Source: Actinomycetota bacterium (GTDB lineage: Bacteria > Actinomycetota > UBA4738 > HRBIN12). From it: 64,000 nt of DNA. The notes beneath the pieces were generated by a model. That model did not search any database, was not told where the DNA came from, and was given only the letters and a program-made list of their open reading frames with translations. This document shows positions 3,933 to 44,127 of this stretch, piece after piece. Positions within the stretch are counted from its first letter, which is position 1. Every line of letters begins with the position of its first letter. The stretch spans positions 18,657-82,656 of the forward strand of contig DATIWE010000056.1 in the NCBI GenBank assembly GCA_035519495.1. The letters run 5' to 3'. Both the position numbers and the translations under genes were made by a program.

Positions 3933-4598
3933 CTAGCCGTCGCGGAACCCGATCTCCTGATGCGTGCCGTCGCAGAACGGCTTGTTCTGCGATCCGCCGC
4001 ACCGGCAGAGCGTGACGCGGTGACGGATCTCGTAGGGCTCGCCATCGTCGCCGACCACGGCCACCCCGCCGCGGACCCAGAGCGGCCCGTTGCGGATCGC
4101 CGAGACCGCCGGCGGGTGGTCGAGTTCGTCGGGCTCGGTCGCGCCGTCGGCGAGGAACTCGAGCCGACCCGAAGGACAGAGCATCACCATCGATCGGATC
4201 CGTGCGCGGATCGCGTCGTCGTCGCTTTCGCCGAGCATCGCCCACACCGTCGTGGAACGGTCGCCGCAGTAGCCGGCCCGCGAGCAGAGCGTCAGGTCAT
4301 CGGACATCTCGAAGCCGCTCCCCGGATACGGATACGCCCGTGCCCGGCGGGGTCCTCGATCAGCCACCTCGGTCCCGTCGAACCCCTCCGCACACCCGCG
4401 TCGATCGCACAGTGGCTGCGTGGCCGTCCGCCCACATCGGCAGACCTCGATCGGGTCCGCGTCGGTCGGGACCGGTGTCTCCGGCGCCCAGTCGACCGGC
4501 TCACCGAACTCCGTCTCGATCTGTGCCGTTCGCGACAACGAGACGCCGTGCACCCGGTAGGGGCCGTCGGCTTCGATCTCGATCCGCTGCGGGTCCAT
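3933..4598 (-). CDS. CDGSH iron-sulfur domain protein with divergent 4Fe-4S mono-cluster domain
   Basis: Two CDGSH-type motifs are present (CRCGRTATQPLCD and CRCGGSQNKPFCDGTH). A central Cys cluster LCSRAGYCGDRS ... MLCPSG follows. I chose the start at MDPQ (ATG 4598). The larger track ORF carries upstream Arg-rich junk. Confidence 0.75.
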   Translation of the reverse strand: MDPQRIEIEADGPYRVHGVSLSRTAQIETEFGEPVDWAPETPVPTDADPIEVCRCGRTATQPLCDRRGCAEGFDGTEVADRGPRRARAYPYPGSGFEMSDDLTLCSRAGYCGDRSTTVWAMLGESDDDAIRARIRSMVMLCPSGRLEFLADGATEPDELDHPPAVSAIRNGPLWVRGGVAVVGDDGEPYEIRHRVTLCRCGGSQNKPFCDGTHQEIGFRDG

Positions 4599-4625
4599 CG
4601 CCGGAACCCTAGTACGTGACCCCAC

Positions 4626-5516
4626 GTGTCCGAGACCCACGCTGGGCGCCTCGCTCCTGCCCGACCCGTGGCGCCTGCCCGACCGACCTGCAAGGCTCCC
4701 ACCGTGGACCGACCATCGCCGCGGGATCATGTGGACGTGATCGCGCACTTCGTCGACCTCTGTTCCGCCGACCGGCGGATCGTCGCCGCCTTCCTCTCGG
4801 GATCCAACGCGCGAGACGAGGCCGACGCATATTCGGACCTCGATCTGTGCCTGATCGCCACCGACGCGGCGTACGACGACGTCGTGGCCGACCGGGCGGC
4901 CATCATCGGGAGGCTCGGCGAGCCGCTCTTCTTGGAGAACTTCGGCCGCGGCGACAACGCGTTCTTCATCCTGGCCGACGGCACCGAGGGCGAGCTGTTC
5001 TTCGCACGCGAGGGCGGGCTCGATGCGATCGACGCGGGGCCGTACCGCCCGCTTGTGGACAAGACGGGCATCCTGGCCGGCGCGGTGTTCCCGTTCACCG
5101 AGCCGGACCGTGCGGAGCAGGTCGAGGAGCTCCGCCGCGTCCTTCAGTGGTTCTGGCACGACCTGTCCCACTTCATCGCCGCGCTCGGACGCGGCCAGCT
5201 CTGGTGGGGGGCCGGCCAACTCGAAGCGCTCCGCGCGTACTGCGTGAACCTCGCGCGCATCGAGCAGCACGTCGAAGCGCAGGACGAGCCCTACGAGAAG
5301 CTGGATCACGTGCTGTCGACGACCGAGCTCGAGGTGCTGCGCTCGACCTTCTGTCCCATGGAACGGCGCGCGATGCTCGAAGCCGCGAGTGACATCCTCG
5401 CCTTCTATCGGGAACGGGCACCCATCGTGGCCAAGGCGTACGGGTTGCCCTATCCCGCCGAGCTCGCGGAGCTGATGTGCACCCGCTTCGACGAGCTCGA
5501 GCCTGCCTCGGGCTGA
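4626..5516 (+). CDS. nucleotidyltransferase, ANT(6)/AadK-like aminoglycoside adenylyltransferase family
   Basis: The NTase motif is RIVAAFLSGSNARDEADAYSDLDLCLIA and the length is about 280 aa, as in ANT(6). The true start is probably the internal VDVIAH near 4734. The 3' end overlaps the convergent membrane-protein gene by about 67 nt. Confidence 0.55.
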   Translation: MSETHAGRLAPARPVAPARPTCKAPTVDRPSPRDHVDVIAHFVDLCSADRRIVAAFLSGSNARDEADAYSDLDLCLIATDAAYDDVVADRAAIIGRLGEPLFLENFGRGDNAFFILADGTEGELFFAREGGLDAIDAGPYRPLVDKTGILAGAVFPFTEPDRAEQVEELRRVLQWFWHDLSHFIAALGRGQLWWGAGQLEALRAYCVNLARIEQHVEAQDEPYEKLDHVLSTTELEVLRSTFCPMERRAMLEAASDILAFYRERAPIVAKAYGLPYPAELAELMCTRFDELEPASG

Positions 5517-12622: not shown

Positions 12623-12757
12623 CGGCTCGAACGCCCGCCGGGCCCGGCGCCGCGCGTCCCCCGAAGTGATGAGCGCCGGAATCACCCGATGGGCGTATGC
12701 CGCTGCCCGCCATAGGCGGTTAGACCGGGACCGATCCGTCCGACGATGGGAGGCACC

Positions 12758-14320
12758 GTGGAACGGCATGGCTCCGAGACGTACTACGTGATCGGCGAAG
12801 GGCTCCTCGGCGAGAGCGTCGGGGGCCGTGTGCACACGATGGCCGCCGCCTCCGCCGAAGCCGAGCTGGTGCCGCCGTTCCGCTTCTCCCGGATGGGGCC
12901 GAGCGGCGTCAACCGCCAGCTCGGCGACCCGCTCCGCAAGAAGCTCGCGAACCTGATGACCTCGGGCCCCGAGGCGTTCTCGCAGATCCCCTCCGGTTAC
13001 ACGTACCTCGGGCAGTTCGCCGACCACGACCTGACCTTCGACAAGACGAACGTGATGTTCGGCCAGAACGTGCCGCCGGCGCAGCTGCTCGAGGCTCGCT
13101 CCCCCAGCCTCGACCTCGACTCGCTCTACGGCGCCGGCCCGACCGATCCCGGATCGGCGGCCTTCTACGAGGCGGACGGGGTCCACCTCAAGAGCGGCAC
13201 GACCGCCGCGGCCGATGGGATCCCCGCGAAAGCTGGCTTCGACCTGCTCCGCGGGGCGGGCGCGACCGCGAAGGCGAAGCGGACCGCGATCATCCCCGAC
13301 CCGAGGAACGACGAGAACCTCGCGGTCGCGCAGACGCACCTCGCGTTCATCCGCTTCCACAACCGGGTCGTCGACACCCTCCCGAGCTCGACGCCCGTCG
13401 GCCAGCGCTTCGCGAAGGCGCGCAAGATCGTCACGAACCACTACCAATGGATGCTCCGCACGGACTTCCTGCCGCGCATCTGCCAGCCGAGCGTCGTGAA
13501 CGATGTGTTCGCCCACGGGAGGAAGGTCTTCGAGGTGGGCGCGTCGCCGACCGACATCCCCACGATGCCGATCGAGTTCTCCGTGGCCGCCTACCGACTG
13601 GGGCACTCGATGGTCCGCGAGGCGTACAGCTGGAACAAGATCTTCGACGACGGCAGCGGCACGCTCGAACTGCTGTTCACGTTCACGGGGCTGAGCGGCG
13701 ACCTCGGCGGTGGGCTGCGGCTCCCCAGCACGTGGATCGCCGACTTCCGGCGCCTCTACGACTTCAGCGAGGCCGGCCGTGCCGATCTCGTCGTGCCTGC
13801 CGCCCGGTTCAATCGGGCGATGCGCATCGACACGAAGCTCTCGAACCCGCTCAAGCGCGTGCCGGGGTTCCCCGCCGGCGAGAACAACCTGGCGTTCCGC
13901 AACCTGACGCGGGCCCGGATGGTGAAGCTCGCGACCGGCCAGCAGATGGCCACCTTCCTGAAGTCGAAGGGCGTGACGCTCACGCCGCTGACGAAGGCGC
14001 AGATCCGCGACGGCGGCACGAACGGGGTCACGCTCGACGGGCTGACGACCGTGCAGCGGAACAGCCTGCTGAAGGACACGCCGCTGTGGTTCTACATCCT
14101 GCGCGAAGCGGAGCTCGGTCAGGGCAAGCTGCGCGGCGTGGGCGCCCGCATCGTGGCCGAGACGTTCCATCGGGCGATCGAGGGCAGCTCGACCACGTCG
14201 ATCGTGCGCGATCCCACATGGCACCCGACGCTCGGCCCGAACAACACGACGTTCCGCATGGTCGACCTGCTGCTGTTCGCGTTCCAGGGGAAGAAGAGCC
14301 TGCTGGCGCCGCTCGGCTGA
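12758..14320 (+). CDS. haem peroxidase of the peroxidase-cyclooxygenase (animal haem peroxidase) superfamily
   Basis: About 520 aa. Family motifs include GQFADHDLTFD (distal His region), RNDENLAVAQTHLAFIRFHN and the proximal region AYRLGHSMV. A GGGAGG SD precedes the GTG at 12758. An alternative ATG is at 12746. Confidence 0.75.
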   Translation: MERHGSETYYVIGEGLLGESVGGRVHTMAAASAEAELVPPFRFSRMGPSGVNRQLGDPLRKKLANLMTSGPEAFSQIPSGYTYLGQFADHDLTFDKTNVMFGQNVPPAQLLEARSPSLDLDSLYGAGPTDPGSAAFYEADGVHLKSGTTAAADGIPAKAGFDLLRGAGATAKAKRTAIIPDPRNDENLAVAQTHLAFIRFHNRVVDTLPSSTPVGQRFAKARKIVTNHYQWMLRTDFLPRICQPSVVNDVFAHGRKVFEVGASPTDIPTMPIEFSVAAYRLGHSMVREAYSWNKIFDDGSGTLELLFTFTGLSGDLGGGLRLPSTWIADFRRLYDFSEAGRADLVVPAARFNRAMRIDTKLSNPLKRVPGFPAGENNLAFRNLTRARMVKLATGQQMATFLKSKGVTLTPLTKAQIRDGGTNGVTLDGLTTVQRNSLLKDTPLWFYILREAELGQGKLRGVGARIVAETFHRAIEGSSTTSIVRDPTWHPTLGPNNTTFRMVDLLLFAFQGKKSLLAPLG

Positions 14321-25581: not shown

Positions 25582-26514
25582 CTACCACCACAACGACTCC
25601 TCGACGCCGCGCTCCGCCTTCGTGAGGTCCTCGGCCCAGGCCTGGGTCGACAGGTACTTCCATCCGCCGTCGGGCAGCAGGCAGACGATGTCGGCCTGCT
25701 CCACCTCCTGGGCGACGCGCTGGGCGACGTGGATCACGGCGCCGCTGCTGATCCCGGCGAAGATCCCCTCGCGCGCCGTCAGCTCGCGCGTGGCCCGCAG
25801 CGAGTCCGCCGAGTTGACCAGGAATTTCCGGTCGATCTGCGCCGGATCGAAGATCGGCGGGATGAAGCCGTCGTCCAGCGACCGGAGCCCGTACACCAGG
25901 TCGCCCAGCTCGGGCTCCGCGGCGATGATCTTCACGTTCGGGTCGTGCGCGTGCAGTCCTCGGCCGGTGCCGGTCAAGGTGCCGCCGGTGCCCATGCCGG
26001 CGACGAAGTGCGTCACGGTCGGCAGGTCGCGGATGATCTCCTGCGCCGTCCCCCGCTCGTGCGCGCCCGGGTTCGCGGGGTTCCCGTATTGGAACGGCAT
26101 GTAGTAGCGCTCGTCGTTCGCGAGGGCGCGCGCCACTTCGATCGACCCGTTCGTGCCCTTCGCACCGTCGGAGAAGACGATCTCCGCGCCGAAGAGCCGG
26201 AGCAGGACGATGCGCTCCTCGCTGGCGTTGTCGGGGATCACGACCGTGAGCGCGTACCCCTTCCGGCGGCTCACCATCGCGAGCGCGATGCCCGTGTTGC
26301 CCGACGTCGGTTCCAGGATGGTCTTGTCCGCCGTGAGCTCGCCGCTGGCTTCGGCGGCCTCCACCATCGCCAGCGCGATCCGGTCCTTCGTGGAGCCGGT
26401 CGGGTTCTGCCCTTCGAGCTTCGCCCACAGCCGAACGGACGGCGAAGGCGACAGCCGAGGGATGCCGACCAGCGGCGTGTCGCCGATCGCATCGAGGATC
26501 GAGTCGAAGCGCAC
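25582..26514 (-). CDS. cysM: cysteine synthase (PLP-dependent). Synteny suggests the CysO-thiocarboxylate-dependent CysM type
   Basis: The PLP lysine lies in NPTGSTKDRIAL. The glycine-rich loop is GTGGT. Gene order matches M. tuberculosis cysM (Rv1336). Confidence 0.8.
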   Translation of the reverse strand: MRFDSILDAIGDTPLVGIPRLSPSPSVRLWAKLEGQNPTGSTKDRIALAMVEAAEASGELTADKTILEPTSGNTGIALAMVSRRKGYALTVVIPDNASEERIVLLRLFGAEIVFSDGAKGTNGSIEVARALANDERYYMPFQYGNPANPGAHERGTAQEIIRDLPTVTHFVAGMGTGGTLTGTGRGLHAHDPNVKIIAAEPELGDLVYGLRSLDDGFIPPIFDPAQIDRKFLVNSADSLRATRELTAREGIFAGISSGAVIHVAQRVAQEVEQADIVCLLPDGGWKYLSTQAWAEDLTKAERGVEESLWW

Positions 26515-27008: not shown

Positions 27009-27401
27009 GTGAGCCAGCTCCCCGGTGAGCCTCGAGAGCAGATGGACGCCCTGATGCGGCTGCTGCTGGCGTACGCGCGCGCCGCGGTGGCGGCCGACGA
27101 CGGCTTCGCGCCGTTCGGCGCGTCGATGGCCCCCGACGGCGAGCTCGAGACCTCCTCGGCCGAGGAGCTGGATGTCCTGCGCGACGAGCTCCGCGGACGC
27201 GCCGATCGCGGCGAGCTCCTGGCGGTGGGCGTGTGCACCGACGTCGTGGTCGACGTTCCGGCGTCGCGGGCGATCCGGGTCGAGCTGGAGCATCGGGACG
27301 CGGAGCCGCTCACCTGCGTGCTCCCTTTCCGCCTGGGCGAGGAACGCCCCGCGTGGGGGGAACTCACGTCGATGCCCGGCGAGCGCCGGACCTGGGACTG
27401 A
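27009..27401 (+). CDS. hypothetical protein (130 aa) upstream of ECF sigma factor
   Basis: ORF with an acidic central region. No recognisable domains. Coding potential is supported by codon bias only. Confidence 0.4.
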   Translation: MSQLPGEPREQMDALMRLLLAYARAAVAADDGFAPFGASMAPDGELETSSAEELDVLRDELRGRADRGELLAVGVCTDVVVDVPASRAIRVELEHRDAEPLTCVLPFRLGEERPAWGELTSMPGERRTWD

Positions 27402-27453
27402 CGCGACCCGGCACCTCTACAGATTCCGGCCGCCCCGGGCGTTGGAAGAGACG

Positions 27454-27990
27454 ATGGAAGAAGTCGCCCATGTGGACGAGTTGATCGCGGAGAGCCGAGC
27501 GTTGTCGGGGCCCGCGCAGCCGTTCGAGGAGTTCTTCATCCGAGAGATGGACCGGCTCCAGCGGGCGCTGGTCCTGATCACGGGGAGCCGCTCCGACGCC
27601 GAGGACATCGCCCAGGAGTCCTTCATGCGGGTCTTCGCGCGCTGGGACGAGGTCGGCACGATGGACCAGCCGGCCGGCTACCTGCATCGGGTCGCGATGA
27701 ACCTGTTCCGCAGCCGGTACCGCCGGGCCGTCCGTGAGCTGAAGCGAACGACCGGGATGGTCGACCGGCACGACGACGGTCTCGGACCGGTCGAGGATCG
27801 GGACGAGGCCGGGCGGATCCTCGCCGAGCTCACGCCGCGGCAACGAGCCGCGCTCGTGCTGACGGAGGCGTTCGGCTATTCGGGCGAGGAAGCCGCAGAG
27901 CTCCTCGGCGTGAAGCCCTCGACCGTGTACGCCCTCACCCACCAGGCCAGGCGCGCCCTGGCCGGGATCGCCGGAGGGATCGATGCCTGA
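27454..27990 (+). CDS. ECF (sigma-70 family) RNA polymerase sigma factor
   Basis: Region 2 is DAEDIAQESFMRVFARWDEV ... YLHRVAMNLFRSRYRR. Region 4 is LTPRQRAALVLTEAFGYSGEEAAELLGVKPSTV. GGAAGAG precedes the ATG at 27454. Confidence 0.85.
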   Translation: MEEVAHVDELIAESRALSGPAQPFEEFFIREMDRLQRALVLITGSRSDAEDIAQESFMRVFARWDEVGTMDQPAGYLHRVAMNLFRSRYRRAVRELKRTTGMVDRHDDGLGPVEDRDEAGRILAELTPRQRAALVLTEAFGYSGEEAAELLGVKPSTVYALTHQARRALAGIAGGIDA

Positions 27991-29113
27991 GGTGCGCGAC
28001 GTCCTCGAGCGGCAGATGGACCGCACCCCGATCGAGCCGATCACGGTCGAGGCCTTCTTCCGTCGCCGCGACTCGTTGCTCCGGCGCCGACGGATCACGG
28101 CGGCCGTGGTCGCGATCGCGGTGGCGGTGGCGGCGACCGGGCTCGCCGTCCACGCGTTCGACCGGGCGCAGGGCGCGGTCCCCGCGCTCCCGCCGCCGCG
28201 CGCGGGGTCGATCGTGTTCGTCGGCCGCGGATCGGCGTGGGCGCCGACGGACAACGGGAGCGTCTACGTCTACGACCCGGCTTCGGGGAACGTCTCGAAG
28301 CTGCTGGATCTCAGCTGCACCCAGGATGCCGCCGGGCACCGATCGTGCCCGGGCGTCCGGGTGAACGGGGTCGCCGCATCGCCCGACGGTACCCGCTTCG
28401 TGTACTCGCTCGCGGAGAGCCACCCCGACACCGTGAGCGATACCACGTGGACGATGACCGATGCGGTTGGGTTGCACGTGCTCGACCTCCGGTCGGGCCG
28501 GAGCACCCGGATCGTGCCGTGCGCGCCGCCTTCCTGCTCCGAGATCGGCTCGGTGGCCTGGTCGCCCAACGGGACCACGATCGCCTACACGATCGACCGT
28601 CTCGACGGAGCGTCGATCCGGCTCGTGGACCCCGACGGCTCGAACGATCGCGCGCTCGACGTCGGGCTGGCCGACGCCCGCGATCCGGCCTGGTCGCCCG
28701 ATTCGTCACGGATCGCGTTCAGCGCGATGCCATCGCACGGTCCGCAGGTCCCGACCCTCTTCGAGACGGCGATCTGCTGCGACACGCGGGAGCTGATCTT
28801 CGGACACACGCAGAGAAGTGGATACGCGCCCGCTTGGTCACCGGCCGGTACGTCGCTCGCGTACGTGCAAGGGGAGGGAGGTCCGACCGGATCGGTATGG
28901 GTGCTCCGGACGGAAAGCGGGATCGCGACCCGGGTCGAAAGCCTCGGGGTCGCGGAGCAAAGCACGCCGGCGTGGAGCCCGGACGGTTCGCGGATCGCCG
29001 TGATCTCCAACGGCCGCCTCCTGCTCGTTGATCCCGACGGAGGAACAACGACCGTGCTCACCAAGGCATGGAGCCGGGTCGGGCCCGTCTTCTACCCAGG
29101 AGGTTCGTGGTGA
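27983..29113 (+). CDS. anti-sigma factor with single TM and extracytoplasmic TolB-like beta-propeller
   Basis: It overlaps the sigma gene by 8 nt. A TM segment (ITAAVVAIAVAVAATGLAV) is followed by repeated AWSPDGS/AWSPNGT/AWSPDSS blades. Confidence 0.7.
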   Translation: MPEVRDVLERQMDRTPIEPITVEAFFRRRDSLLRRRRITAAVVAIAVAVAATGLAVHAFDRAQGAVPALPPPRAGSIVFVGRGSAWAPTDNGSVYVYDPASGNVSKLLDLSCTQDAAGHRSCPGVRVNGVAASPDGTRFVYSLAESHPDTVSDTTWTMTDAVGLHVLDLRSGRSTRIVPCAPPSCSEIGSVAWSPNGTTIAYTIDRLDGASIRLVDPDGSNDRALDVGLADARDPAWSPDSSRIAFSAMPSHGPQVPTLFETAICCDTRELIFGHTQRSGYAPAWSPAGTSLAYVQGEGGPTGSVWVLRTESGIATRVESLGVAEQSTPAWSPDGSRIAVISNGRLLLVDPDGGTTTVLTKAWSRVGPVFYPGGSW

Positions 29114-30105
29114 ACATCACTCGCGGGGTCGGGCTCCTCGGTGCCGTCGCGCTGCTCGGTGCCTGCACCGGTGGCGGGTCGGGTCCCACGCAGGCGCCGA
29201 CGACGTCGATCGCACCGACCCCGGGGGTGATCGTGTTCGGGAACGACCCCCTGAGCGCGGGTGGCCACGCGCAGCTCTACATCGAATCCGACGACGGCTC
29301 GCATGTGCGACGGTTGGTCGTCTCGAGCGAGAAAGACGTGGGTCCGTCCATCTCCCCCGACGGGACGCGGGTCATGTTCACGCGGATCCACGATCCCCGC
29401 CCCGATCGCATCTTCGTCGTGAACGTCGACGGATCCGATCTGCATCAGGTCGTCCCGACGGGGTGCCCGGGCCGCTGCGGAGACGCGGTCGAGAGCGATC
29501 CCTGGTCGCCCGATGGGACCCGGATCGTGTTCACCCGGGCGATCTACGGCCGGGGACCCATCCCGATCCACGTGCAGCTCTGGACGGCGAACGCGGACGG
29601 GACCGGCGCACGGCAGATCACCGACCCGCACCACGCCCAGGACGATCAGGCCAGCTGGTCGCCGGACGGGACGCAGATCGTCTACCTCCACTGGGCGTAC
29701 GGCCACCCGGATCGGTTCACCATCCAGATCGCTGCCGCCGACGGCACCGGGAGCCGGCAGCTGACCCCGGACGGACTCGATGCCGCAGACCCCGCGTGGT
29801 CGCCGGACGGGGCGTTGATCGCCTTCCAGTCGCCCCCGGATCCGGGCGGGGCCATGCAACAGCTGTACACGATCCGTCCGGACGGCTCGGGCCTCCGCTC
29901 GCTCACCCCGGAGCTCGCCGGCACCGCCACGAACCACCCGTCGTGGTCGCCGGACGGATCGCAGCTCGTGTTCGCACACGCTCCCTCCGGTCCCCTCGGC
30001 GGCGACCTCTTCGTGATCGATCGCGACGGGACCGGCGTTCACGTCCTGCGGGTGACGGGGTTGAACGAGAACGGCCCGGACTGGGGACCCGCCGTCGCGC
30101 CCTAG
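29110..30105 (+). CDS. TolB-like beta-propeller lipoprotein
   Basis: AGGAGG sits 6 nt before the GTG at 29110. The signal peptide has a lipobox GLLGAVALLGAC. Repeated WSPDGT blades follow. There is a 4-nt overlap with the anti-sigma gene. Confidence 0.7.
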   Translation: MNITRGVGLLGAVALLGACTGGGSGPTQAPTTSIAPTPGVIVFGNDPLSAGGHAQLYIESDDGSHVRRLVVSSEKDVGPSISPDGTRVMFTRIHDPRPDRIFVVNVDGSDLHQVVPTGCPGRCGDAVESDPWSPDGTRIVFTRAIYGRGPIPIHVQLWTANADGTGARQITDPHHAQDDQASWSPDGTQIVYLHWAYGHPDRFTIQIAAADGTGSRQLTPDGLDAADPAWSPDGALIAFQSPPDPGGAMQQLYTIRPDGSGLRSLTPELAGTATNHPSWSPDGSQLVFAHAPSGPLGGDLFVIDRDGTGVHVLRVTGLNENGPDWGPAVAP

Positions 30106-30124: not shown

Positions 30125-30403
30125 CTAGCTGCCGCCGGCGACGGCCGGCAGGATCGAGACCGTGTCGCCTTCCTTGACCTCGGTCTGGAGCGAGCCGAGG
30201 TAGCGCACGTCCTCGTCGTTCAGGTACACGTTGATGAACCGATGCAGGCCGCCGTCCTCGGACACGACGTTCTTCGTGATGCCCGGGTACTTCGCTTCGA
30301 GGTCCTGCAGGACGTCGGCCAGCGTGGCGCCGTCCGCACCCACGCGGGCCTCGTCGCCCGCGAACTTCCGCAGGATCGTCGGCAGCTTCACGGTCACGGT
30401 CAT
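30125..30403 (-). CDS. cysO: MoaD/ThiS-family sulfur-carrier protein (CysO-like) with C-terminal Gly-Gly-Ser
   Basis: 92 aa with a beta-grasp composition. The C-terminus is ...SILPAVAGGS. The position matches CysO (Rv1335) in the mec-cysO-cysM synteny. Confidence 0.8.
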   Translation of the reverse strand: MTVTVKLPTILRKFAGDEARVGADGATLADVLQDLEAKYPGITKNVVSEDGGLHRFINVYLNDEDVRYLGSLQTEVKEGDTVSILPAVAGGS

Positions 30404-30428
30404 GTCGGCTCTCCTCGGGGGTCTGGGT

Positions 30429-31256
30429 CTACTCGGGCCTGGCGGGGACGCCGCAGAACTGTTCGTAGTCGATCAGCTCGGTGATGGTCGGCTCCTTGCC
30501 ACACACCGGGCAGTCCGCGTCCCAGCGGATCTTCACTTCCTGCACGTCCATCGTGAGGGCGTCGTAGAGGAGCAACCTTCCTTCCAGCGTCACGCCCTCG
30601 CCGGTGAGGATCTTGATCGCCTCGGTCGCCTGGACCGAGCCGATGAAGCCCGGCAGTACGCCGAACACGCCCCCTTCGGCGCACGACGGCACGGTGCCCG
30701 GCGGCGGCGGCGAGGGGAACAGGCAGCGATAGCACGGCGTCTCCTGCCCCGGCATGAACACCGAGGCCTGGCCTTCGAACTGGTAGATCGAGCCGTAGAC
30801 GAGCGGCTTGCCCAGGAACTGCGTGGCGTCGTTCACCAGGTAGCGGACCGGGAAGTTGTCGGTGCCGTCGACGATCACGTCGTAGCCGTTCATCACGTCG
30901 AACACGTTCGTCGAATACAGGAGCGTGTCGTGCCCGACGATCTCGATCGTCGGGTTGATCGCACGGAGGTGCTCGACGGCCGACTCGACCTTCGGACGGC
31001 CCACATCGGCGGTCGTGTGCAGGATCTGACGTTGGAGGTTCGTCACGTCGACGCGGTCGAAGTCCACGATGCCGAGCTTGCCCACGCCCGCGGCGGCCAG
31101 GTACATCGCGACCGGCGAGCCCAGCCCGCCGGCGCCGATCACCAGCACCGAACCGTCCAGGAGCCTGCGTTGGCCCTTCCCGCCGATGTTCGGCAGGATG
31201 ATGTGTCGCGAATACCGCTGGACCTGCTCCTCGGTGAACATCGGCTGCTGGCTCAT
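30429..31256 (-). CDS. ThiF/MoeB-family E1-like adenylyltransferase (MoeZ-like but lacking rhodanese domain)
   Basis: The start MSQQPMFTEEQVQRYSRHIIL overlaps the mec stop (ATGA). The nucleotide-binding motif is VLVIGAGGLGSPVAMYL. Zn Cys pairs are CYRC and CPVC. At 276 aa it has no C-terminal rhodanese domain. Confidence 0.8.
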   Translation of the reverse strand: MSQQPMFTEEQVQRYSRHIILPNIGGKGQRRLLDGSVLVIGAGGLGSPVAMYLAAAGVGKLGIVDFDRVDVTNLQRQILHTTADVGRPKVESAVEHLRAINPTIEIVGHDTLLYSTNVFDVMNGYDVIVDGTDNFPVRYLVNDATQFLGKPLVYGSIYQFEGQASVFMPGQETPCYRCLFPSPPPPGTVPSCAEGGVFGVLPGFIGSVQATEAIKILTGEGVTLEGRLLLYDALTMDVQEVKIRWDADCPVCGKEPTITELIDYEQFCGVPARPE

Positions 31257-31651
31257 GCGACCGTCAGCTCCTCCTCGGTGACCTCGCCCTCGTGGATGAA
31301 GAACGAGCGAAGGACGGGATGCTCGCGGTCGGCCAGCGACAGCAGGATGTAGCGGGCGTCGGGGTAGAAGGCCAGCTTGATGTCGGTCTCGCTCGGGTAC
31401 GCCTCGGAGTGCGTGTGCGAGTGGTAGATCGCCCAGAGATCCCAGCCGTGCTCGTCGAGCTCGTCGAAGACCCGCAGCTGCTCCCTGCCGTCCAGGCGGT
31501 ACGTCGCCGGGCTGGCGTCGGCGTTCTTCATCGGGAACACCTTCACCGGCGCCCCGGCCTCGGCGGCGACCAGGCCGCAGCATTCGTTGGGGAACTCACG
31601 CATCCCCTGTTCGAGGATCTCCTTGTACAGGACGCCGTCCAGCTCGCTCAA
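31253..31651 (-). CDS. mec: Mov34/MPN/JAMM-family metalloprotease (Mec-like)
   Basis: The JAMM motif is HSHTHSEAYPSETD. An upstream Glu/Cys lies in FPNECCGLV. I placed the start at the TTG at 31651, which is preceded by GGAGAC. The ORF could extend to the ATG at 31702. Confidence 0.75.
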   Translation of the reverse strand: MSELDGVLYKEILEQGMREFPNECCGLVAAEAGAPVKVFPMKNADASPATYRLDGREQLRVFDELDEHGWDLWAIYHSHTHSEAYPSETDIKLAFYPDARYILLSLADREHPVLRSFFIHEGEVTEEELTVA

Positions 31652-31738
31652 CGCTCGTCTCCATCGTCGACAGACGCGGAACCCCGCCTGTTGCAGGTGC
31701 AAATGCTATCAGCGGACCGGCTATTCCCGATACGGGCT

Positions 31739-32833
31739 TTAGGCGGGTAATACGACCCTGCCCGAGCCGTCCACGACGACGTCGATGCGTTGCAACGGAG
31801 CACTTGCGGGCCCGGCCACCGGCTCGGCCCCTCGAGAGGGATCGAACTCCGCCCCGTGACACGGGCAGATCAGGAGTTGGGACGCCGGATCGTAGCCGAC
31901 CACGCACCCGGCGTGGGTGCAGATCCGGCTGTACGCGAGCACGCTGTCGTTCGCGAGCCGCAGCAGGACGGCCGGACCGACCCCGGGGGCCGAGAACCCG
32001 ACCGCCTTGCCCACGGGGAGCTGCGAGAGGTTCGCGATCACGGTGCCCGCAGGCGAGGCTGGGGAAGAGGGTTGCGCTGGTGCGCTTGTCCCGCCCGCGG
32101 CGGGCGTGGACGGCGCCGTCGCGGGCGAGTGGCTCGCCGGCGATCGACGGATCGCCGGCGAGATCGCGTCGACGTTCGTCGGGACGCCGCGGAACACCCG
32201 CGCGACCCCGTCCAAGACGAGCGCGCAGAGGCCGACGGTGGCGACCTGCAGGGCGACCCGCCGGTCGACGGGCGGGCCGGCGTTGACGTACGCGACGCGA
32301 CCCCCTGCGCCGGGCACGGGCGTTCGACGCAAGCGCGACCACGTCCCGACCACGAGGGCCAGCCACGCCACGGCGTAGATCGAATCGGATCCGAGGAAGT
32401 ACGGGTGGACGTGCCACGTCGCCGAGAGCAGGAGCGAGAGGTTCACGAGGAACCCGCCGAGCGCCGCGAGCGGCAACGCGATCCCGAACAGGACGGCCAG
32501 GCCGATCGCCGTTTCGAGCAGCGCGGTCGATACGCCCACCAATACCGCGTGGTGCGCGAGGGCGCCGAACACGGCCCCGAGCGGCGTGCCCAGTGCGAAC
32601 CCGCGCAACTGCGTGCCGATGTAGTCGGGACTCCCCCGGCGCAGGAAGTTGGGGTCCAGGAGCTTCTGCATCCCCGCGAACACGAACGTGCCACCGAGGA
32701 ACGCGCGGAGGATCCCCAGGGGCCATCCCGTGGCGCGCCAGTCGGCGACAAGGAGCGCACCGAACGTCGCATGGCGATGCGCGCCGCGGAGGCTCCGGTC
32801 AGGGCGTGGCGGCGCATACGTACGTGGTCGCAT
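31739..32833 (-). CDS. DoxX-family membrane protein fused to C-terminal Rieske [2Fe-2S] domain
   Basis: The N-terminal 4-TM DoxX-like region is ILRAFLGGTFVFAGMQKL. The C-terminal Rieske motifs are CTHAGC ... CPCHGAEFD. Confidence 0.7.
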   Translation of the reverse strand: MRPRTYAPPRPDRSLRGAHRHATFGALLVADWRATGWPLGILRAFLGGTFVFAGMQKLLDPNFLRRGSPDYIGTQLRGFALGTPLGAVFGALAHHAVLVGVSTALLETAIGLAVLFGIALPLAALGGFLVNLSLLLSATWHVHPYFLGSDSIYAVAWLALVVGTWSRLRRTPVPGAGGRVAYVNAGPPVDRRVALQVATVGLCALVLDGVARVFRGVPTNVDAISPAIRRSPASHSPATAPSTPAAGGTSAPAQPSSPASPAGTVIANLSQLPVGKAVGFSAPGVGPAVLLRLANDSVLAYSRICTHAGCVVGYDPASQLLICPCHGAEFDPSRGAEPVAGPASAPLQRIDVVVDGSGRVVLPA

Positions 32834-32868
32834 CTGCCTACTTTCGGCGCCGGTCGGCTAAGAGTGGG

Positions 32869-33927
32869 TTAGGAGAACGTCGAGACTTCGTGGCGTTCCG
32901 CCGGCCGGCCAACGACGCGGATCGCGCCCGGAGCGCCCTCGACGACCGCGCCGACGCGTGTGAACAGCCCGGATGCCTCGAGGGCGCTCGGATCGTGCGT
33001 GGTCACGAGCAGCCCGCCGCTCGTCTGCGCGTCGGCCAGCACCAGCTGCTCGGGCGGAGTCAGTTCGCCCCAATCGGTGACCGGGGCCAACCAGGCGTGG
33101 TTCCGCTTCGAGCCGCCGGGTACGACGTCGCCTCGGGCGAGATCGAGGACCCCCGGGATCAGCGGCACGGCCGCCGCGTCGACGATCGCCGCGCAGCCGC
33201 TCGCCTCCAGCAACCGGCGGAGGTGGCCGAGCAGGCCGAAGCCGGTCACGTCGGTGCCGGCCTCGACGCCGGCGTCCAGCATCGCCGCGGCGGCCGCGGC
33301 GTTACTCGTCGTCATGAGCTCGACGGCCGTGGCCACCAGCTCGGCGGTCACGACGCCCCGCTTCAGCGCCGTCGCGATGATGCCCAGACCGATCGGCTTC
33401 GACAGCCAGAGTTCCGCGCCGGGCGTTGCCGTCGAGTTGCGCACGATCCGGTCCGGATCCACGAGCCCCAGGACGACCATGCCGTACTTCGGCTCCGGGT
33501 CGGTGATCGAGTGCCCGCCGAGCACCGCGACGCCGGCCGCACCGGCGGCGTCGATGCCGCCCTGCAACACCTGCCCGAGGGCTTCGCGCGGCAACTCGTC
33601 GATCGGCCAGCTCACGATGTTGAGCCCGAGGAAGGGCCGGCCGCCCATCGCGTACACGTCCGAGAGCGCGTTCGTGGCGGCGATGCGGCCCCAGTCGTAC
33701 GGGTCGTCGACGATCGGCGTGAAGAAGTCCAGCGTCGCCACGACGGCCTCGCCGGAGGGAAGGCGGTAGACGGCGGCGTCGTCGCCCGTGTCGGCGGCAA
33801 CCAGCACCTCGGCAGGGACCGGCGGCAGGTCGAGGCCGGCGAGCACGGCCAGGAGATCGTCCGGTCCGAGCTTGCAGCCGCAGCCCGCGCCGTGGCTGAA
33901 CGAGGTGAGACGGCGTTCGGTCTGCAT
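32869..33927 (-). CDS. selD: selenide, water dikinase (selenophosphate synthetase), Cys-type
   Basis: The start is MQTERRLTSFSHGAGCGCKLGP. This is the SelD signature with Cys, not Sec. The AIR-synthase-like fold is present. Confidence 0.85.
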   Translation of the reverse strand: MQTERRLTSFSHGAGCGCKLGPDDLLAVLAGLDLPPVPAEVLVAADTGDDAAVYRLPSGEAVVATLDFFTPIVDDPYDWGRIAATNALSDVYAMGGRPFLGLNIVSWPIDELPREALGQVLQGGIDAAGAAGVAVLGGHSITDPEPKYGMVVLGLVDPDRIVRNSTATPGAELWLSKPIGLGIIATALKRGVVTAELVATAVELMTTSNAAAAAAMLDAGVEAGTDVTGFGLLGHLRRLLEASGCAAIVDAAAVPLIPGVLDLARGDVVPGGSKRNHAWLAPVTDWGELTPPEQLVLADAQTSGGLLVTTHDPSALEASGLFTRVGAVVEGAPGAIRVVGRPAERHEVSTFS

Positions 33928-33977: not shown

Positions 33978-35819
33978 GTGGACGTAGCGGCGTTCCTCGC
34001 CATGTATCCCCCGTTCTCGGAGCTGGTGCCCGACCGGCTCGCGGCCATCGCCCGGGCGATCGAGATCGCCCACTTCCCCGCCGGCGAGGTGATCCTCGAG
34101 CAGGACGGCACGCCGGCCTCCAACCTGTTCGTCGTCCGCAAGGGCGCCGTTGAGGTGCTGGACGACGGGATCGTGCTGGACCTGTTGGGCGAAGGGGAAG
34201 TGTTCGGACAGTTCTCGCTCCTCGGTCAGGTCAGCCCGGTCGCCACGATCCGCGCGCTCGAGGACACGCTCGCCTACCTGATCCCTCGCCCGGTCGCCGT
34301 AGACGTCCTCTCGTCGCCCGCCGGCAGATCGGTCGTCCTGGCTACGATGCGACGGCGGCTCGAGGTGGCGAACGACGAAGTGAGCGTCGCCCGGTACGAG
34401 GACCCGCGGTTCGCGACGATCGGCTCGTTGATCCGTCGCGAACCCGTGACGATCGAACCCGACGCGCCGATCGCCCAGGCCGCGCTGAGGATGACCGAGC
34501 AGCGGGTTTCGTCCCTCCTGATCCCGACGCCGGAGGGTTGGGGGATCCTCACCGACCGGGATCTGCGTGCGAAGGTCGTCGCGGAGAAGGCCTCGTACGA
34601 CGCCCCGGCGATCACGTCGGCGACCGTGCCGGCACGGACGCTACCGTCCTCCACGCTCTCCGGCGAAGCGTTGCTCGAGATGTTCGCCCAAGGCGTCCAC
34701 CATTTCCCCGTGACCGAGGGCGGGCGCGTGATCGGCATCGTGACCGACACCGACCTCATGGGGATCGGCCGGCACACGCCCTTCGCGATCAAGAGCGCGA
34801 TCGAACGCGCCGACACGCGCGAGGCTGTGGTCGATGCCGGCCGCCAGCTCCCCAACGTGGTGGCGGCGCTCGTTGACTCGACCGCTGACCCGGTGGCGGT
34901 CGGACGGGTGATCGCGCTGGTGATCGACGCCCTCACCGAGCGCCTGGTCCTGCTCGCCGGCCGGTCGATCGGCGAGGCGCCCGCCGCGTTCGCGTGGTTG
35001 TCGCTCGGCAGCGCGGCCCGCCACGAGCAGGCGCTGCACACCGATCAGGACCACGCGCTGGCATACGAGCTCGCGCCGGGATCAACGGACGAGGACGTGG
35101 ACGGCTTCTTCGCCGATCTCGCCGAGTTCGTGACGAGCGGCCTCGAAGCCGTCGGCATCCCCCGGTGCCATGGCGACGCGATGGCGGTCCATCCGGCGAT
35201 GCGCCGCTCGCTCGAACAGTGGGCCGGGCGCTTCCGACGCTGGATGGACGAACCCGACCTCGACGCCAGGATCCTGTCGTCGATCGGGTTCGACTTCCGG
35301 CGCGTCGCCGGTCCGCTGGCCGCCGAGCCGACGCTGGACGCTGCGGTCCGGGAAGCACGCACACACCCGGCGTTCATCGAACTGCTGGCGCGCGGCGCGC
35401 TCACACTGAAGCCGCCCACGGGCTTCTTCCGGGATCTCGTGGTCGAGGCGAAGGGCGAGCACGCCGGCCGGCTCGACGTGAAGCACGGCGGCATCACGAT
35501 CGTCACGAACATCGCGCGCGCCGTCGGCATCGCCGCGGGGACCGCCTCGAAGGGCACGCTCCCGCGGCTCGACGCCGCGGCCGCGGCTGGCACGCTCGAC
35601 CCCACGGTTGCCGGCGAACTGGGCGACGCCTTCCGGTTCCTGTGGCAGGTCCGACTCCGTCATCAGGTGACGCAGATCGAGGCGGGGACCGCGCCGGACG
35701 ACTTCGTCGATCCGACGGCGCTCGGGCCGCTGGACCGGAGCGGCCTCAAGGAAGCCTTCCGGGTGATCCGCGCGGCGCAGACGCTGGTCGCGACGGAGTT
35801 CAACGCCCAGCTCCGCTGA
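33978..35819 (+). CDS. cyclic-nucleotide-binding + CBS pair + DUF294 nucleotidyltransferase domain protein
   Basis: The N-terminal cNMP-binding domain is FPAGEVILEQDGTPASNLFVVRKGAVEV. CBS domains sit in the middle. The C-terminal half is DUF294/DUF294_C-like. Confidence 0.7.
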   Translation: MDVAAFLAMYPPFSELVPDRLAAIARAIEIAHFPAGEVILEQDGTPASNLFVVRKGAVEVLDDGIVLDLLGEGEVFGQFSLLGQVSPVATIRALEDTLAYLIPRPVAVDVLSSPAGRSVVLATMRRRLEVANDEVSVARYEDPRFATIGSLIRREPVTIEPDAPIAQAALRMTEQRVSSLLIPTPEGWGILTDRDLRAKVVAEKASYDAPAITSATVPARTLPSSTLSGEALLEMFAQGVHHFPVTEGGRVIGIVTDTDLMGIGRHTPFAIKSAIERADTREAVVDAGRQLPNVVAALVDSTADPVAVGRVIALVIDALTERLVLLAGRSIGEAPAAFAWLSLGSAARHEQALHTDQDHALAYELAPGSTDEDVDGFFADLAEFVTSGLEAVGIPRCHGDAMAVHPAMRRSLEQWAGRFRRWMDEPDLDARILSSIGFDFRRVAGPLAAEPTLDAAVREARTHPAFIELLARGALTLKPPTGFFRDLVVEAKGEHAGRLDVKHGGITIVTNIARAVGIAAGTASKGTLPRLDAAAAAGTLDPTVAGELGDAFRFLWQVRLRHQVTQIEAGTAPDDFVDPTALGPLDRSGLKEAFRVIRAAQTLVATEFNAQLR

Positions 35820-41713: not shown

Positions 41714-44056
41714 CTAGGCGGCGGTCGAACCCGTCGCCACGCCGGCGCGATCCAGCGCGACCTCCAGCGCCTCGCGGACGTCGCCGACCAGATGGAAGGT
41801 CATGTCTCCGCGTACGCGCTCGGGCACGTCGTCCAGATCGCCCTCGTTCCGCTTCGGCAGGATCACCGTCGTCAGCCCAGCTCGGTGCGCGGCGAGCACC
41901 TTCTGCTTGACGCCACCGATCGGGAGCACACGTCCCTGCAGCGTCACCTCGCCGGTCATGCCGACCTCGGGCCGGACCGTCTCGCCGCGGAGCAGCGACA
42001 CGAGCGCGGTCGTCATCGTAACGCCGGCGCTCGGGCCATCCTTCGGCACGGCGCCAGCCGGAACGTGCAGGTGGAACCGACCCTTCAGCTGCGCGGCATC
42101 GATCGAGAGCGCGGCCGCGTGCGATCGCACATACGAAAGGGCGATCTGCGCGGACTCCTTCATCACGTCGCCCAATTGCCCCGTGAGCGTCAGCCCCTCG
42201 CCCTCGTCCTCGCGGGTCGCCTCGATGAACAACACGTCGCCACCGCTGCCCGTCACCGCGAGCCCCGTCGCGACGCCCGGGACGCTGGTGCGCTCCGCCA
42301 TCTCCTCGAGCGAGAACCGCTCGCGGCCGAGGTAGGCGCGCACCTCCTCGCGGCCCACGCTCACGGGCGCCAGCGTCTCGTCGGCCGCCAGCTTCGTGGC
42401 GACCTTCCGCAGCACCTTGCCCAGCTCGCGTTCGAGGTTGCGGACGCCGGCCTCGCGCGTGTACGCGGTCACGATCTCGCGGAGCGCGTCGTCGCTCAGC
42501 TCGACCTCGTCGGGGCGCAAGCCGTTGCGCTCCGTCTGGCGCGGCAGGAGGTGCAGCCGGGCGATCGCGACCTTCTCGTCCTCGGTGTAGCCGTCGAGTC
42601 GGATGACCTCCATCCGGTCAAGCAGCGGCCCCGGGATCGTCTCGGCGACGTTCCCGGTTGCCACGAACAGGACCTCCGACAGGTCGAGATCGACGTCGAG
42701 GTAGTGATCGCGGAACGTGTGGTTCTGCGCGGGATCGAGCACCTCGAGCAGCGCCGCCGAGGGGTCGCCGCGCCAGTCGGCGCCGACCTTGTCGATCTCG
42801 TCCAGCATCATCACCGGGTTCTTCGTGCCGGCGTCCTTCAGCGCGCGCACGATGCGCCCCGGCAGCGCGCCGACGTACGTCCGCCGGTGCCCCCGGATCT
42901 CGGCCTCGTCGTGGACGCCGCCCAGGGACACGCGGACGAACCTCCGTCCGAGCGCGCGGGCGACCGACTCGCCGAGCGAGGTCTTGCCCACGCCGGGAGG
43001 TCCGACGAGCGTCAGGATCACGCCCGAGCCGCGGCCACCGGTTTCCGTCAAGCCGCGGTCGGCGCGCAGCTTGCGCACGGCGAGGTACTCGACGATGCGG
43101 TCCTTCACGTCCTCGAGGCCCTCGTGATCCTCGTCGAGGATCCGGCGCGCCCCAACGATGTCGAGGTTGTCGTCGGTCCGCACGTCCCACGGGAGCTCGG
43201 TTATCCAGTCGAGGTAGGTCCGGATCCATCCGTACTCCGGCGACTGCTCGGACGTGCGCTCGAGGCGACCGAGCTCACGCTCGGCCTGCTCGCGCACGTC
43301 GTCGGGCATGCCGGCGCTCGCGATCTTGTCGCGGAAGGTCTGGATGACGTCCTCGCTGCCGTCCTCCCCGAGCTCCTTGCGGATCGCGCTCATCTGCTCG
43401 CGGAGGATGGCCTCACGCTGCCGCTGCTCGAGGCTGTCGGTCACGTCTCCGCGGATCTTCTCCTTCAGCTCGGTCTCGGCCAGGGTGTCCCTCGCCCAGC
43501 CGAGCACGAGCTCCAGACGCTCCTCGACGTCGAGCGTCTCGAGGATCTCCACCTTCTGCTCGAACGACAGGTCGGGCGAGTAGCCGGCGGTGTCCGCCAT
43601 CTGTCCGGGTTCGTTGATGCCGCGGAGGAACTCGGCGATCGCGGGAACGCCGCGGGCCTCCACGATGCCTTCGATCGTGGCGCGATACTCGCGCGCCAGG
43701 GCGCGCGTCCGCTCGGTCGCCTGCTCGTCCTCGACCGGCTCGACCTGGACCCAGGTCGCCTCACCCGTTCCCGGCACGCCCACGCCGACCTCGGCCCGGC
43801 GGAGCCCGCGGATCACGATCGCCTCGGTGCCGCCGCGGAGGCTGCCGATGTCCTCGATCTTCCCGATCGTGCCGACCCGCGCGTAACGGCCGTCCAGGCG
43901 TGGGACGAGCAGCAGCAGACGCTCCTCCCCAGCCGCGGCGTCGACCGCGGCTCGCGCCTCCGGCGATTCCAACGTCAAGGTGACGACCATCCCCGGCAGC
44001 ACGACGCCGGTGGTCAGCGGCAACAGGGGGAGGACAAGGGTGTCGATCTCGGGCAT
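41714..44056 (-). CDS. lon: ATP-dependent Lon protease (endopeptidase La)
   Basis: 780 aa. The LonN domain starts LPLLPLTTGVVLPGMVV. AAA+ Walker A is GPPGVGKTS. The protease domain Ser is in PKDGPSAGVTM, with the Lys downstream. Confidence 0.9.
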   Translation of the reverse strand: MPEIDTLVLPLLPLTTGVVLPGMVVTLTLESPEARAAVDAAAGEERLLLLVPRLDGRYARVGTIGKIEDIGSLRGGTEAIVIRGLRRAEVGVGVPGTGEATWVQVEPVEDEQATERTRALAREYRATIEGIVEARGVPAIAEFLRGINEPGQMADTAGYSPDLSFEQKVEILETLDVEERLELVLGWARDTLAETELKEKIRGDVTDSLEQRQREAILREQMSAIRKELGEDGSEDVIQTFRDKIASAGMPDDVREQAERELGRLERTSEQSPEYGWIRTYLDWITELPWDVRTDDNLDIVGARRILDEDHEGLEDVKDRIVEYLAVRKLRADRGLTETGGRGSGVILTLVGPPGVGKTSLGESVARALGRRFVRVSLGGVHDEAEIRGHRRTYVGALPGRIVRALKDAGTKNPVMMLDEIDKVGADWRGDPSAALLEVLDPAQNHTFRDHYLDVDLDLSEVLFVATGNVAETIPGPLLDRMEVIRLDGYTEDEKVAIARLHLLPRQTERNGLRPDEVELSDDALREIVTAYTREAGVRNLERELGKVLRKVATKLAADETLAPVSVGREEVRAYLGRERFSLEEMAERTSVPGVATGLAVTGSGGDVLFIEATREDEGEGLTLTGQLGDVMKESAQIALSYVRSHAAALSIDAAQLKGRFHLHVPAGAVPKDGPSAGVTMTTALVSLLRGETVRPEVGMTGEVTLQGRVLPIGGVKQKVLAAHRAGLTTVILPKRNEGDLDDVPERVRGDMTFHLVGDVREALEVALDRAGVATGSTAA

Positions 44057-44127
44057 CTCGTGGCTCCTTCAAGCTGGAACGGTCTGCACCTGCAAGAACG
44101 GCCGGCTCGGCGCCGGCATTCCCGATA

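Follow-up and report, generated by a model that had tools for sequence, protein, structure and literature searches.

A conserved mec-E1-cysO gene unit beside selD in uncultured Actinomycetota, probably a protein-thiocarboxylate route to cysteine

The Rv1331-1341 operon of Mycobacterium tuberculosis and the chemistry of its Mec, CysO and CysM proteins have been described (PMC8280819, citing Burns 2005). In M. tuberculosis, mec-cysO-cysM and moeZ are directly regulated by SigH, with a promoter immediately upstream of mec (PMC4803200, PMC8280819), and the SigH consensus is GGAAYR-N17-18-GTT (PMC4803200). The same combination of a ThiS/MoaD carrier, an E1 enzyme, a JAB protease and a cysteine synthase was classified as operon type 4c by Iyer, Burroughs and Aravind in 2006 (PMC1779556), and precedents for extended carriers trimmed by a JAMM protease are QbsE/QbsD and CxnE/CxnF (PMC5925218). 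Here we analyzed a stretch of 64,000 nt (the window) from an uncultured Actinomycetota bacterium, contig DATIWE010000056.1. It contains a co-directional run of five genes, for a selenophosphate synthetase (selD), a fusion of DoxX and Rieske domains, a JAMM protease (mec), an E1 adenylyltransferase and a CysO-like carrier. A previous sequence-only reading had proposed that these genes form one module, in which the carrier is loaded with selenium or with sulfur from a non-rhodanese donor. We put at roughly three in four the probability of a more ordinary explanation, in which mec, E1 and cysO, together with a cysM gene 3.6 kb downstream, encode the actinobacterial protein-thiocarboxylate route to cysteine, and selD is an ordinary selenophosphate synthetase gene that sits by mec through clade-wide inherited gene order.

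Coordinates refer to the whole window, and genes were taken from a six-frame list of open reading frames with inspection of start codons. The five minus-strand genes are separated by gaps of 35, 87, -4 and 25 nt, counted from selD to the carrier gene, and the run, its coordinates and its gaps were exactly as previously read; Pfam and NCBIfam searches likewise agreed with every gene identity (Table 1). For comparison with relatives, the Mec protein was scanned against one genome per GTDB species, and the best 80 loci, one per species, were compared with the window proteins by tblastn. All 80 belong to metagenome-assembled genomes of uncultured Actinomycetota, with Mec identities of 59-98%. Upstream counts out of 48 refer to loci with at least 9 kb of upstream DNA, and downstream counts use 53 loci. 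We found mec-E1-cysO again across these 80 species-level genomes, preceded by selD on the same strand, and the order mec-E1-cysO is invariant (53/53 loci). The arrangement is far beyond chance.

The carrier contains a beta-grasp ThiS/MoaD domain, for which Pfam ThiS gave 69 bits (cut-off 22.5). Its identity to M. tuberculosis CysO (3DWG_C, 97 bits) is about 60%, as it is to another actinobacterial protein of the CysO type (4N6E_B, 101 bits), and both alignments span the whole protein up to the Gly-Gly. The gene for CysM lies 3.6 kb downstream of cysO, from which it has been split off by an insertion. The best matches of its product in the Protein Data Bank (PDB) were the M. tuberculosis CysM structures 3DWG_A and 3DKI_A, at 339 bits as against about 238 bits for enzymes of the CysK type. 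Its motifs NPTGSTKDR and ...GLRSLDDGF align with the M. tuberculosis enzyme, and the lysine that binds pyridoxal phosphate is conserved, as is an arginine at the position that we take to be Arg220 of the M. tuberculosis protein, with the same presumed role. Among relatives, cysM follows cysO in 47 of 53, directly (<100 nt) in 14 of 60. Precomputed gene calls on an identical metagenome contig gave the downstream order on the operon strand as GNAT acetyltransferase, PALP enzyme (CysM), MurI, MBL hydrolase, RNase PH and RdgB. The order mec-cysO-cysM-...-murI-MBL-rph-rdgB thus matches the M. tuberculosis Rv1331-1341 operon (PMC8280819). Orthology of CysO and CysM, together with this synteny, bears out the earlier identification of the Mec/CysO core with the M. 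tuberculosis system. Gene by gene, cysM-murI-MBL-rph-rdgB presumably corresponds to Rv1336-1341.

Compared with Mec-CysO-CysM (Rv1334-1336) and MoeZ (Rv3206c) of M. tuberculosis, the locus is alike in its carrier (~60%), its CysM, its JAMM hydrolase and the murI/MBL/rph/rdgB genes downstream. In contrast to M. tuberculosis, however, the E1 gene is placed within the operon, its rhodanese domain lost or never present, cysM is split from cysO by insertions in most species, and the carrier has one more residue in the window species. The upstream genes also differ, with selD and others here versus clpS-aosR-Rv1333 in M. tuberculosis. The locus has the same four components as operon type 4c and the same inferred role linking sulfur transfer to cysteine synthesis, but the type 4c E1 is fused to a rhodanese domain (PMC1779556), whereas here it is ThiF-only in all 80 species. 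The junction between cysO and cysM spans 36 nt to 8.2 kb in relatives, which marks it as an insertion hot spot inside a functional pathway; in the window (27172-30105, plus strand) it is occupied by an ECF sigma factor gene and two TolB/PD40 beta-propeller genes, all convergent.

Table 1. Positions of the genes and elements of the locus in the window, and of UGA-containing selD genes in relatives (locus:position)
Feature	Position	Strand	Remarks
cysO, ThiS/MoaD-type sulfur carrier	30125-30403	-	92 aa, ends ...LPAVAGGS
E1 adenylyltransferase, MoeB/MoeZ/ThiF type	30429-31256	-	275 aa
mec, JAMM/MPN+ zinc metalloprotease	31253-31651	-	132 aa from inferred TTG
DoxX/DoxD-Rieske fusion	31739-32833	-	364 aa
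selD, selenophosphate synthetase, Cys type	32869-33927	-	352 aa
cysM, O-phosphoserine sulfhydrylase orthologue	25582-26514	-	
Conserved promoter/operator-like element directly before mec	31691-31728	-	
Terminator-like hairpin with T-rich tail	30073-30089	-	36 nt past cysO stop; consensus scan
UGA-selD sites in relatives	L007:8906, L010:8203, L024:8901, L061:968, L070:283, L074:8933, L077:1655, L080:8923		

From these components we infer the following route. The E1 would adenylate the C-terminal Gly-Gly of CysO, and sulfur would be supplied in trans, either as sulfide or as a persulfide made by a desulfurase or rhodanese whose gene lies elsewhere, to give CysO-COSH. CysM would then join CysO-COSH with O-phosphoserine, an S-to-N acyl shift would yield CysO-Gly-Gly-Cys, and Mec would release cysteine and regenerate CysO. 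Mec would also remove the encoded extra serine of the window carrier, once, after translation. In this scheme mec-E1-cysO would be a transcription unit of its own, and selD would serve the selenocysteine, possibly selenouridine, trait of the lineage. The core would be a variant of the known pathway, with an in-operon rhodanese-less E1, a conserved stress-type promoter and a drifting carrier C-terminus. If the explanation is correct, a large and abundant clade of uncultured soil Actinomycetota uses the Mec/CysO/CysM oxidative-stress pathway with a dedicated E1 of this kind, and the end of the carrier drifts freely as the hydrolase of the pathway itself repairs CysO.

The absence of a rhodanese domain from the E1 was examined by profile search. 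The protein matched Pfam ThiF only (residues 15-251, 278 bits); residues 252-275 are too short a stretch to hold a rhodanese domain, and no rhodanese match was obtained. It aligned to positions 15-275 of the 392-position MoeZ model, with 379 bits against a cut-off of 647, and, lacking the rhodanese part, it stays below the cut-offs of both MoeZ and MoeB. The sequence shows GAGGLG, two CxxC motifs and the cysteine of SCAEGG, and the nearest solved structures are Uba4, MoeB and ThiF. The 120 closest homologues, all of the same clade with 85-100% identity, are ThiF-only proteins of 270-278 aa, bar three Mec-E1 fusions. Since the gap from E1 to cysO is only 17-86 nt in 74 of 76 loci, the rhodanese domain is absent clade-wide. 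The rhodanese-less E1 of the sequence-only reading was hence confirmed and holds in all relatives, but the associated idea of an undescribed sulfur donor was not, as rhodanese-less E1s that receive sulfur in trans (MoeB, ThiF, TtuC, UbaA) are well known. The E1 resembles E. coli MoeB and ThiF, Thermus TtuC and archaeal UbaA in its size class (~250-275 aa), its single ThiF domain, its two CxxC zinc motifs and its active-site cysteine. Unlike those enzymes, its sequence and its C-terminal ...IDYEQFCG linker are closest to the rhodanese-fused MoeZ/MoeB models, which suggests that a rhodanese domain was lost. The E1 start codon overlaps the mec stop codon (ATGA) and is preceded by a GAGGAGGAG ribosome-binding site; by this overlap E1 is predicted to be translationally coupled to mec. 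Three metagenomic proteins of 407-413 aa (P0111, P0112 and P0120), with Prok-JAB and ThiF domains, are apparent Mec-E1 fusions, either real or produced by frameshift artefacts.

A wider role of the E1 and its carrier has to be considered, since the models of MoeB, MoeZ and ThiF all gave the E1 good scores, and no other E1 was seen in the window. The two proteins might form a general sulfur-activation pair for cysteine, molybdopterin, thiamin and tRNA thiolation, with selD co-located as tRNA 2-thiouridine precedes 2-selenouridine. One rhodanese-less E1 can indeed serve several carriers, as TtuC does in Thermus and MoeZ in Amycolatopsis. However, neither the window nor the 20-kb flanks of the relatives contained a tRNA thiolase, MoaE, ThiG or selU, and the carrier is specifically CysO-like, with Mec and CysM as its conserved partners. 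We therefore regard a general pair as unlikely.

Mec showed the features expected of a JAMM protease, with 74 bits for Pfam Prok-JAB, 83 bits for PDB 2KKS and a complete motif E...HSHx7SxxD; its translation contains NECCG...HSHTHSEAYPSETD. The TTG start codon was inferred from a preceding GGAGA; an alternative TTG at 31702 is possible, yet it would fall inside the conserved promoter motif described below. In the described pathway, Mec hydrolyses CysO-Cys after Gly-Gly (PMC8280819), and by analogy the window Mec would do the same. A reading in which E1, CysO and Mec serve mainly for ubiquitin-like protein conjugation of the SAMP/TtuB type, with CysO joined to target lysines, Mec as the deconjugase and cysteine synthesis secondary or absent, drew on several scores. 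The carrier exceeds the NCBIfam cut-offs for SAMP1 (66.6 vs 60) and MoaD_arch, and the mec promoter shares a motif with that of the Lon protease gene. The E1 and Mec matched the models of UbaA (351 bits) and desampylase (62 bits), but both remained under the cut-offs, 450 and 130 respectively. UbaA and TtuC likewise lack a rhodanese domain. Against this, CysO is far nearer to M. tuberculosis CysO than to the SAMP1 structures, which gave only about 29 bits. In addition, the CysM orthologue lies in conserved synteny, directly after cysO in 14 species, no E2 is encoded in the locus, and PADLOC showed only generic similarity of the E1 domain. Conjugation as the main function thus seems to us very improbable. 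An anti-phage E1/JAB system was also considered and rejected: PADLOC gave partial E1-domain similarity only (<=70 bits) and no matches to Mec or CysO, and no E2 or Cap2-type fusion was present.

In the window species the carrier ends in GG-S, and the Gly-Gly is consequently not formed by its last two residues; the encoded protein is a pro-form with one extra serine. It had been proposed that C-terminal processing is an obligate part of the system. One part of this proposal stood, in that GGS must be trimmed before adenylation, with Mec the obvious candidate, as its normal cut lies between CysO-GG and Cys. For the carrier of this species, processing is probably obligatory. The other part did not stand: the extension is sporadic and recent, not a conserved design feature. 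CysO ends in ...AVAGG in 46 species, whereas 26 species have 1-4 extra residues of at least 13 kinds, among them C (6 species), R (5), RR (4), AA, AD, QR and others. The GGS end occurs only in the window species and in the locus L005 (98% identical; L numbers denote relatives' loci), and the next relative, L006, with 96% CysO identity, ends in GG. Six relatives encode CysO-GGC, which is the very CysO-Cys adduct that Mec hydrolyses in the known pathway. The simplest reading is that the normal activity of Mec would also remove extensions encoded in the genome. If Mec trims them, mutations in the region of the stop codon are tolerated, and the C-terminus drifts as a result. The carriers QbsE (thioquinolobactin) and CxnE (chuangxinmycin) likewise have residues past the Gly-Gly and a co-encoded JAMM protease, QbsD or CxnF, that is expected to expose it (PMC5925218). 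Their extension is fixed and belongs to a secondary-metabolite cluster, whereas that of CysO is a single residue in the window, differs from species to species (none, C, S, R, RR, AA and others) and occurs in a primary-metabolism locus.

In order to characterize the region before mec, the 130 nt preceding the gene were aligned in 77 loci, and motifs were counted over 75 loci. The alignment revealed a conserved block, cGGGAATAnCCGACCCCnCTGnTAGCATTTGCA(CC/GG)TGCAAC, followed by a variable GC-rich hairpin and then the ribosome-binding site. In the window, the element consists of GGGAATA (31728-31722), a spacer of 17 nt, an ATT that overlaps TGaTAGCAT (with the -10-like TAGCAT at 31708-31703), and the palindrome TTGCACCTGCAA (31702-31691). 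GGAATA was found in 70 of the 75 loci, with a spacer of 17-18 nt to the ATT trimer. TGnTAG(C/G)AT, an extended -10 of the actinobacterial TAGRRT type, was present in 62, and the exact palindrome TTGCAnnTGCAA also in 62. The block is kept whichever gene precedes mec, be it selD, DoxX-Rieske, PfkB or a hydrolase. The element is unique in the window, and in related loci totalling 1.24 Mb the palindrome matched 79 times, 73 of them before mec; four more are coincidences in the GCGCK codons of selD. Its -35 box and spacing fit the M. tuberculosis SigH consensus GGAAYR-N17-18, so that here, as in M. tuberculosis, a stress-type promoter with a SigH-like -35 box would lie right before mec. These sequence signals indicate that mec-E1-cysO has strongly conserved transcription signals of its own, and a SigH/SigR-like stress promoter with an operator-like palindrome would drive the three-gene unit. 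The five genes had been read as a single unit, provided that no promoter parts the DoxX-Rieske gene from mec; a promoter-like motif precedes mec in roughly 70 of the 75 relatives, and the single unit accordingly was not retained. A consensus scan of 29.9-34.2 kb found no sigma-70 consensus promoter, and it was the comparative alignment that revealed the motif. The possibility of a known RNA family before mec was rejected, as in Rfam searches of the whole window and of two targeted regions no riboswitch, SECIS or any further family rose to its threshold. Downstream, the evidence for the terminator-like hairpin at 30089-30073 is weak, with 2 such sites found against 1.1 expected; the hairpin probably ends the mec-E1-cysO transcript.

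The GC-rich hairpin between the palindrome and the mec start (window ~31690-31665) is found in most of the related loci and varies in sequence while its pairing is kept, as in GGGCGCG-TCC-GCGCCC of L007; in the mec mRNA it would occupy the 5' end. The most distant relatives lack it, and their start codon follows the motif directly. Before the gene for the Lon protease (41717-44056), at 44084-44123 on the minus strand, we found a perfect SigH/SigR-type GGAATG-N17-GTT and, one base later, TTGCAGGTGCAG, which is nearly the same palindrome as at the mec promoter. Another copy, GGGAAT-N18-GTT-c-TTGCAGGTGCGAA, is located in L075 at about position 800. These similarities suggest a regulator or regulon common to lon and mec-E1-cysO; if the cysteine route is correct, the conserved promoter and palindrome, which lon has too, indicate a stress regulon amenable to mapping.

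SelD itself proved to be canonical. It scored 370 bits on TIGR00476 (cut-off 125), contains AIRS and AIRS_C domains and has the N-terminal motif SHGAGCGCK, which places it in the Cys type. Its alignment with E. coli SelD (3U0O) scored 288 bits and showed an intact Cys/Lys loop and intact metal-binding aspartates. In eight relatives, the codon for the catalytic cysteine is replaced by an in-frame TGA (SHGAG-U-ACK; Table 1). About 27 nt past this TGA lies a 7-bp hairpin with a GUC loop, in which 100% of the cells are paired and compensatory changes occur at two positions; the pairing collapses when the 3' arm is slid by one column or more. Such a hairpin has the look of a bacterial SECIS element, and no Rfam family matched it. 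A SelD that contains selenocysteine (Sec) requires SelA, SelB and tRNA-Sec. The UGA-selD genes with their SECIS-like hairpin therefore indicate that a sub-branch decodes selenocysteine, and hence that SelD has a conventional client. In a neighbour-joining tree, Sec and Cys forms of SelD are interleaved within one sub-branch, apparently implying repeated Sec/Cys exchanges. The window species may well have a selenium trait too, and its SelD would be functionally separate from the mec unit. The new role that had been proposed for SelD is not needed, given a canonical protein that is itself a UGA-encoded selenoprotein in eight relatives. It shares with other bacterial SelD proteins, including the Sec form, the TIGR00476 score and the GAG(C/U)xCK motif. 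Its gene does not adjoin selA, selB or selU and is instead fixed beside the mec operon in one actinobacterial clade. The senABC selenoneine cluster, which comprises a SelD paralogue, a selenosugar synthase and an EgtB-like enzyme, is likewise a case in which a selD-type gene clusters with genes unrelated to Sec or selenouridine. In contrast to senABC, no SenA- or SenB-like genes were found in the window or flanks, and the neighbours here have an established sulfur function.

We then considered how firmly selD is tied to mec, with all adjacency evidence coming from one clade. As previously anticipated, the adjacency is conserved: in every locus with sufficient upstream DNA (48/48), and in 69 of 72 informative loci, mec is preceded on its own strand by selD. 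The two genes are direct neighbours in 48 of 69 (gap 24-244 nt, median ~86) and 0.8-4.8 kb apart in 21. The genes between them in these 21 species include an amidohydrolase, an RNB exoribonuclease, an opposite-strand PfkB kinase and an alpha/beta hydrolase. Inserted genes, or genes upstream of selD, also include a DUF4352-like protein and ABC transporters, none of them related to selenium or sulfur. Unrelated neighbours are syntenic as well, namely SDR (41/48), DUF885 (27/48), murI (44/53) and rph (43/53). The selD-mec insertions were not taken as proof of independence, since cysO and cysM, which are true partners, are parted by insertions more often still.

One interpretation of this adjacency joins SelD, the rhodanese-less E1, CysO and Mec, perhaps also DoxX-Rieske, in a module for selenium transfer with an acyl-selenocarboxylate carrier. 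Selenophosphate or selenide would, for example, attack CysO-AMP; free selenocysteine might then be made by CysM and Mec, or the carrier might pass selenium to another acceptor. Such a module is consistent with selD being the nearest same-strand neighbour upstream of mec in 48/48 loci and abutting the mec promoter in 48/69, with the lack of a sulfur-relay domain on the E1 in all relatives, with the lack of a nearby sulfur donor gene (64 kb), and with the lack of any description of such a system in the searchable literature. However, SelD is fully explained by the selenocysteine trait of relatives, and CysO and CysM are close orthologues of sulfur pathway proteins. The promoter-like motif belongs to mec itself, unrelated genes, some on the opposite strand, part selD from mec in 21 species, DoxX-Rieske is not conserved, and other housekeeping neighbours are equally syntenic. 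To our knowledge, M. tuberculosis has no selD, and we know of no chemical precedent for such a module. The M. tuberculosis pathway, moreover, works without selD in the described locus (PMC8280819). The searchable literature contained no report tying selD to mec, moeB or cysO, nor any protein selenocarboxylate; if the interpretation were true, CysO-COSeH would be the first. The selenium-loaded carrier of the sequence-only reading was unsupported, as we found no evidence for it beyond adjacency and the missing rhodanese domain, and we give such a module only the slimmest chance. A looser version, in which the placement of selD reflects a selenium coupling, with CysO-COSeH making free selenocysteine with CysM and Mec, or buffering selenium or delivering it to or from SelD, is hardly more probable. 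A functional selD link would mean a new kind of selenium biochemistry; nothing found requires such a link.

Several observations nevertheless weigh against the cysteine route with an independent, ordinary selD. The -10 trimer of the mec element is ATT (in TAGCATT/TAGGATT), not the GTT of SigH, and it reads equally as an extended -10, TGnTAGSAT; with ATT in place of GTT, the assignment of a sigma factor is uncertain. No recognisable terminator follows selD, and in 19 species (e.g. L008, L009, L013, L014, L016, L017, L020) the selD stop codon (TAA/TAG) is formed by the GGAATA(A/G) box itself; read-through from selD into mec is plausible. The window SelD lies in a different sub-branch of the neighbour-joining tree, in which no Sec form was seen. 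The window and the flanking loci of relatives contained no selA, selB, selC or selU, ARAGORN detected no tRNA-Sec in the window or in any of the 80 loci, and a Pfam survey of 20 further window proteins gave no selA, selB, selU, yedE, yedF, senA or senB. Similarly, no rhodanese or cysteine desulfurase was found as a sulfur source in the 64 kb, including this survey; the sulfur donor is likewise still unidentified for M. tuberculosis MoeZ (PMC8280819). Finally, the linkage of selD and mec (48/48 within 10 kb, 48/69 direct) is tighter than that of cysO and cysM (14/60 direct). As certain partners are less tightly linked than selD and mec, synteny alone cannot dismiss a selD link.

The DoxX-Rieske gene did not hold its place as a member of the unit that had been proposed. 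It occurs in 10 of 48 loci, mostly on the other side of selD, and is a lineage-variable neighbour outside the conserved unit. A position between selD and mec was seen only in the window species, L005 and L006; in nine other loci (L019, L020, L021, L027, L029, L032, L039, L046 and L048) the gene precedes selD. The protein matched DoxD (28 bits) and Rieske (37 bits), with DoxX just under its cut-off (23.3 bits); it contains the boxes CTHAGC...CPCHG and gave partial NCBIfam matches to QcrA and the arsenite oxidase small subunit, in keeping with a Rieske domain of the bc1/arsenite-oxidase type. When present, the gene always adjoins selD, on either side, and often follows a divergent pair of histidine kinase and response regulator genes; it may be linked to selD or to this two-component system.

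Two further neighbours of selD were observed. In several relatives, a conserved protein of about 430-450 aa with no Pfam match is encoded on the same strand directly upstream of selD, as in L045 (2724-4064), with homologues in L008 and L037 (cluster c44). In the window, a putative nucleotidyltransferase with cNMP-binding, CBS and DUF294 domains (33978-35819, plus strand) is divergent from selD, and the same layout was found in 23 of 48 relatives. Elsewhere in the window, positions 12746-14320 encode a bacterial protein of 524 aa with an animal-haem-peroxidase domain, and positions 3936-5309 a protein of 458 aa with two CDGSH iron-sulfur domains and a divergent 4Fe-4S domain.

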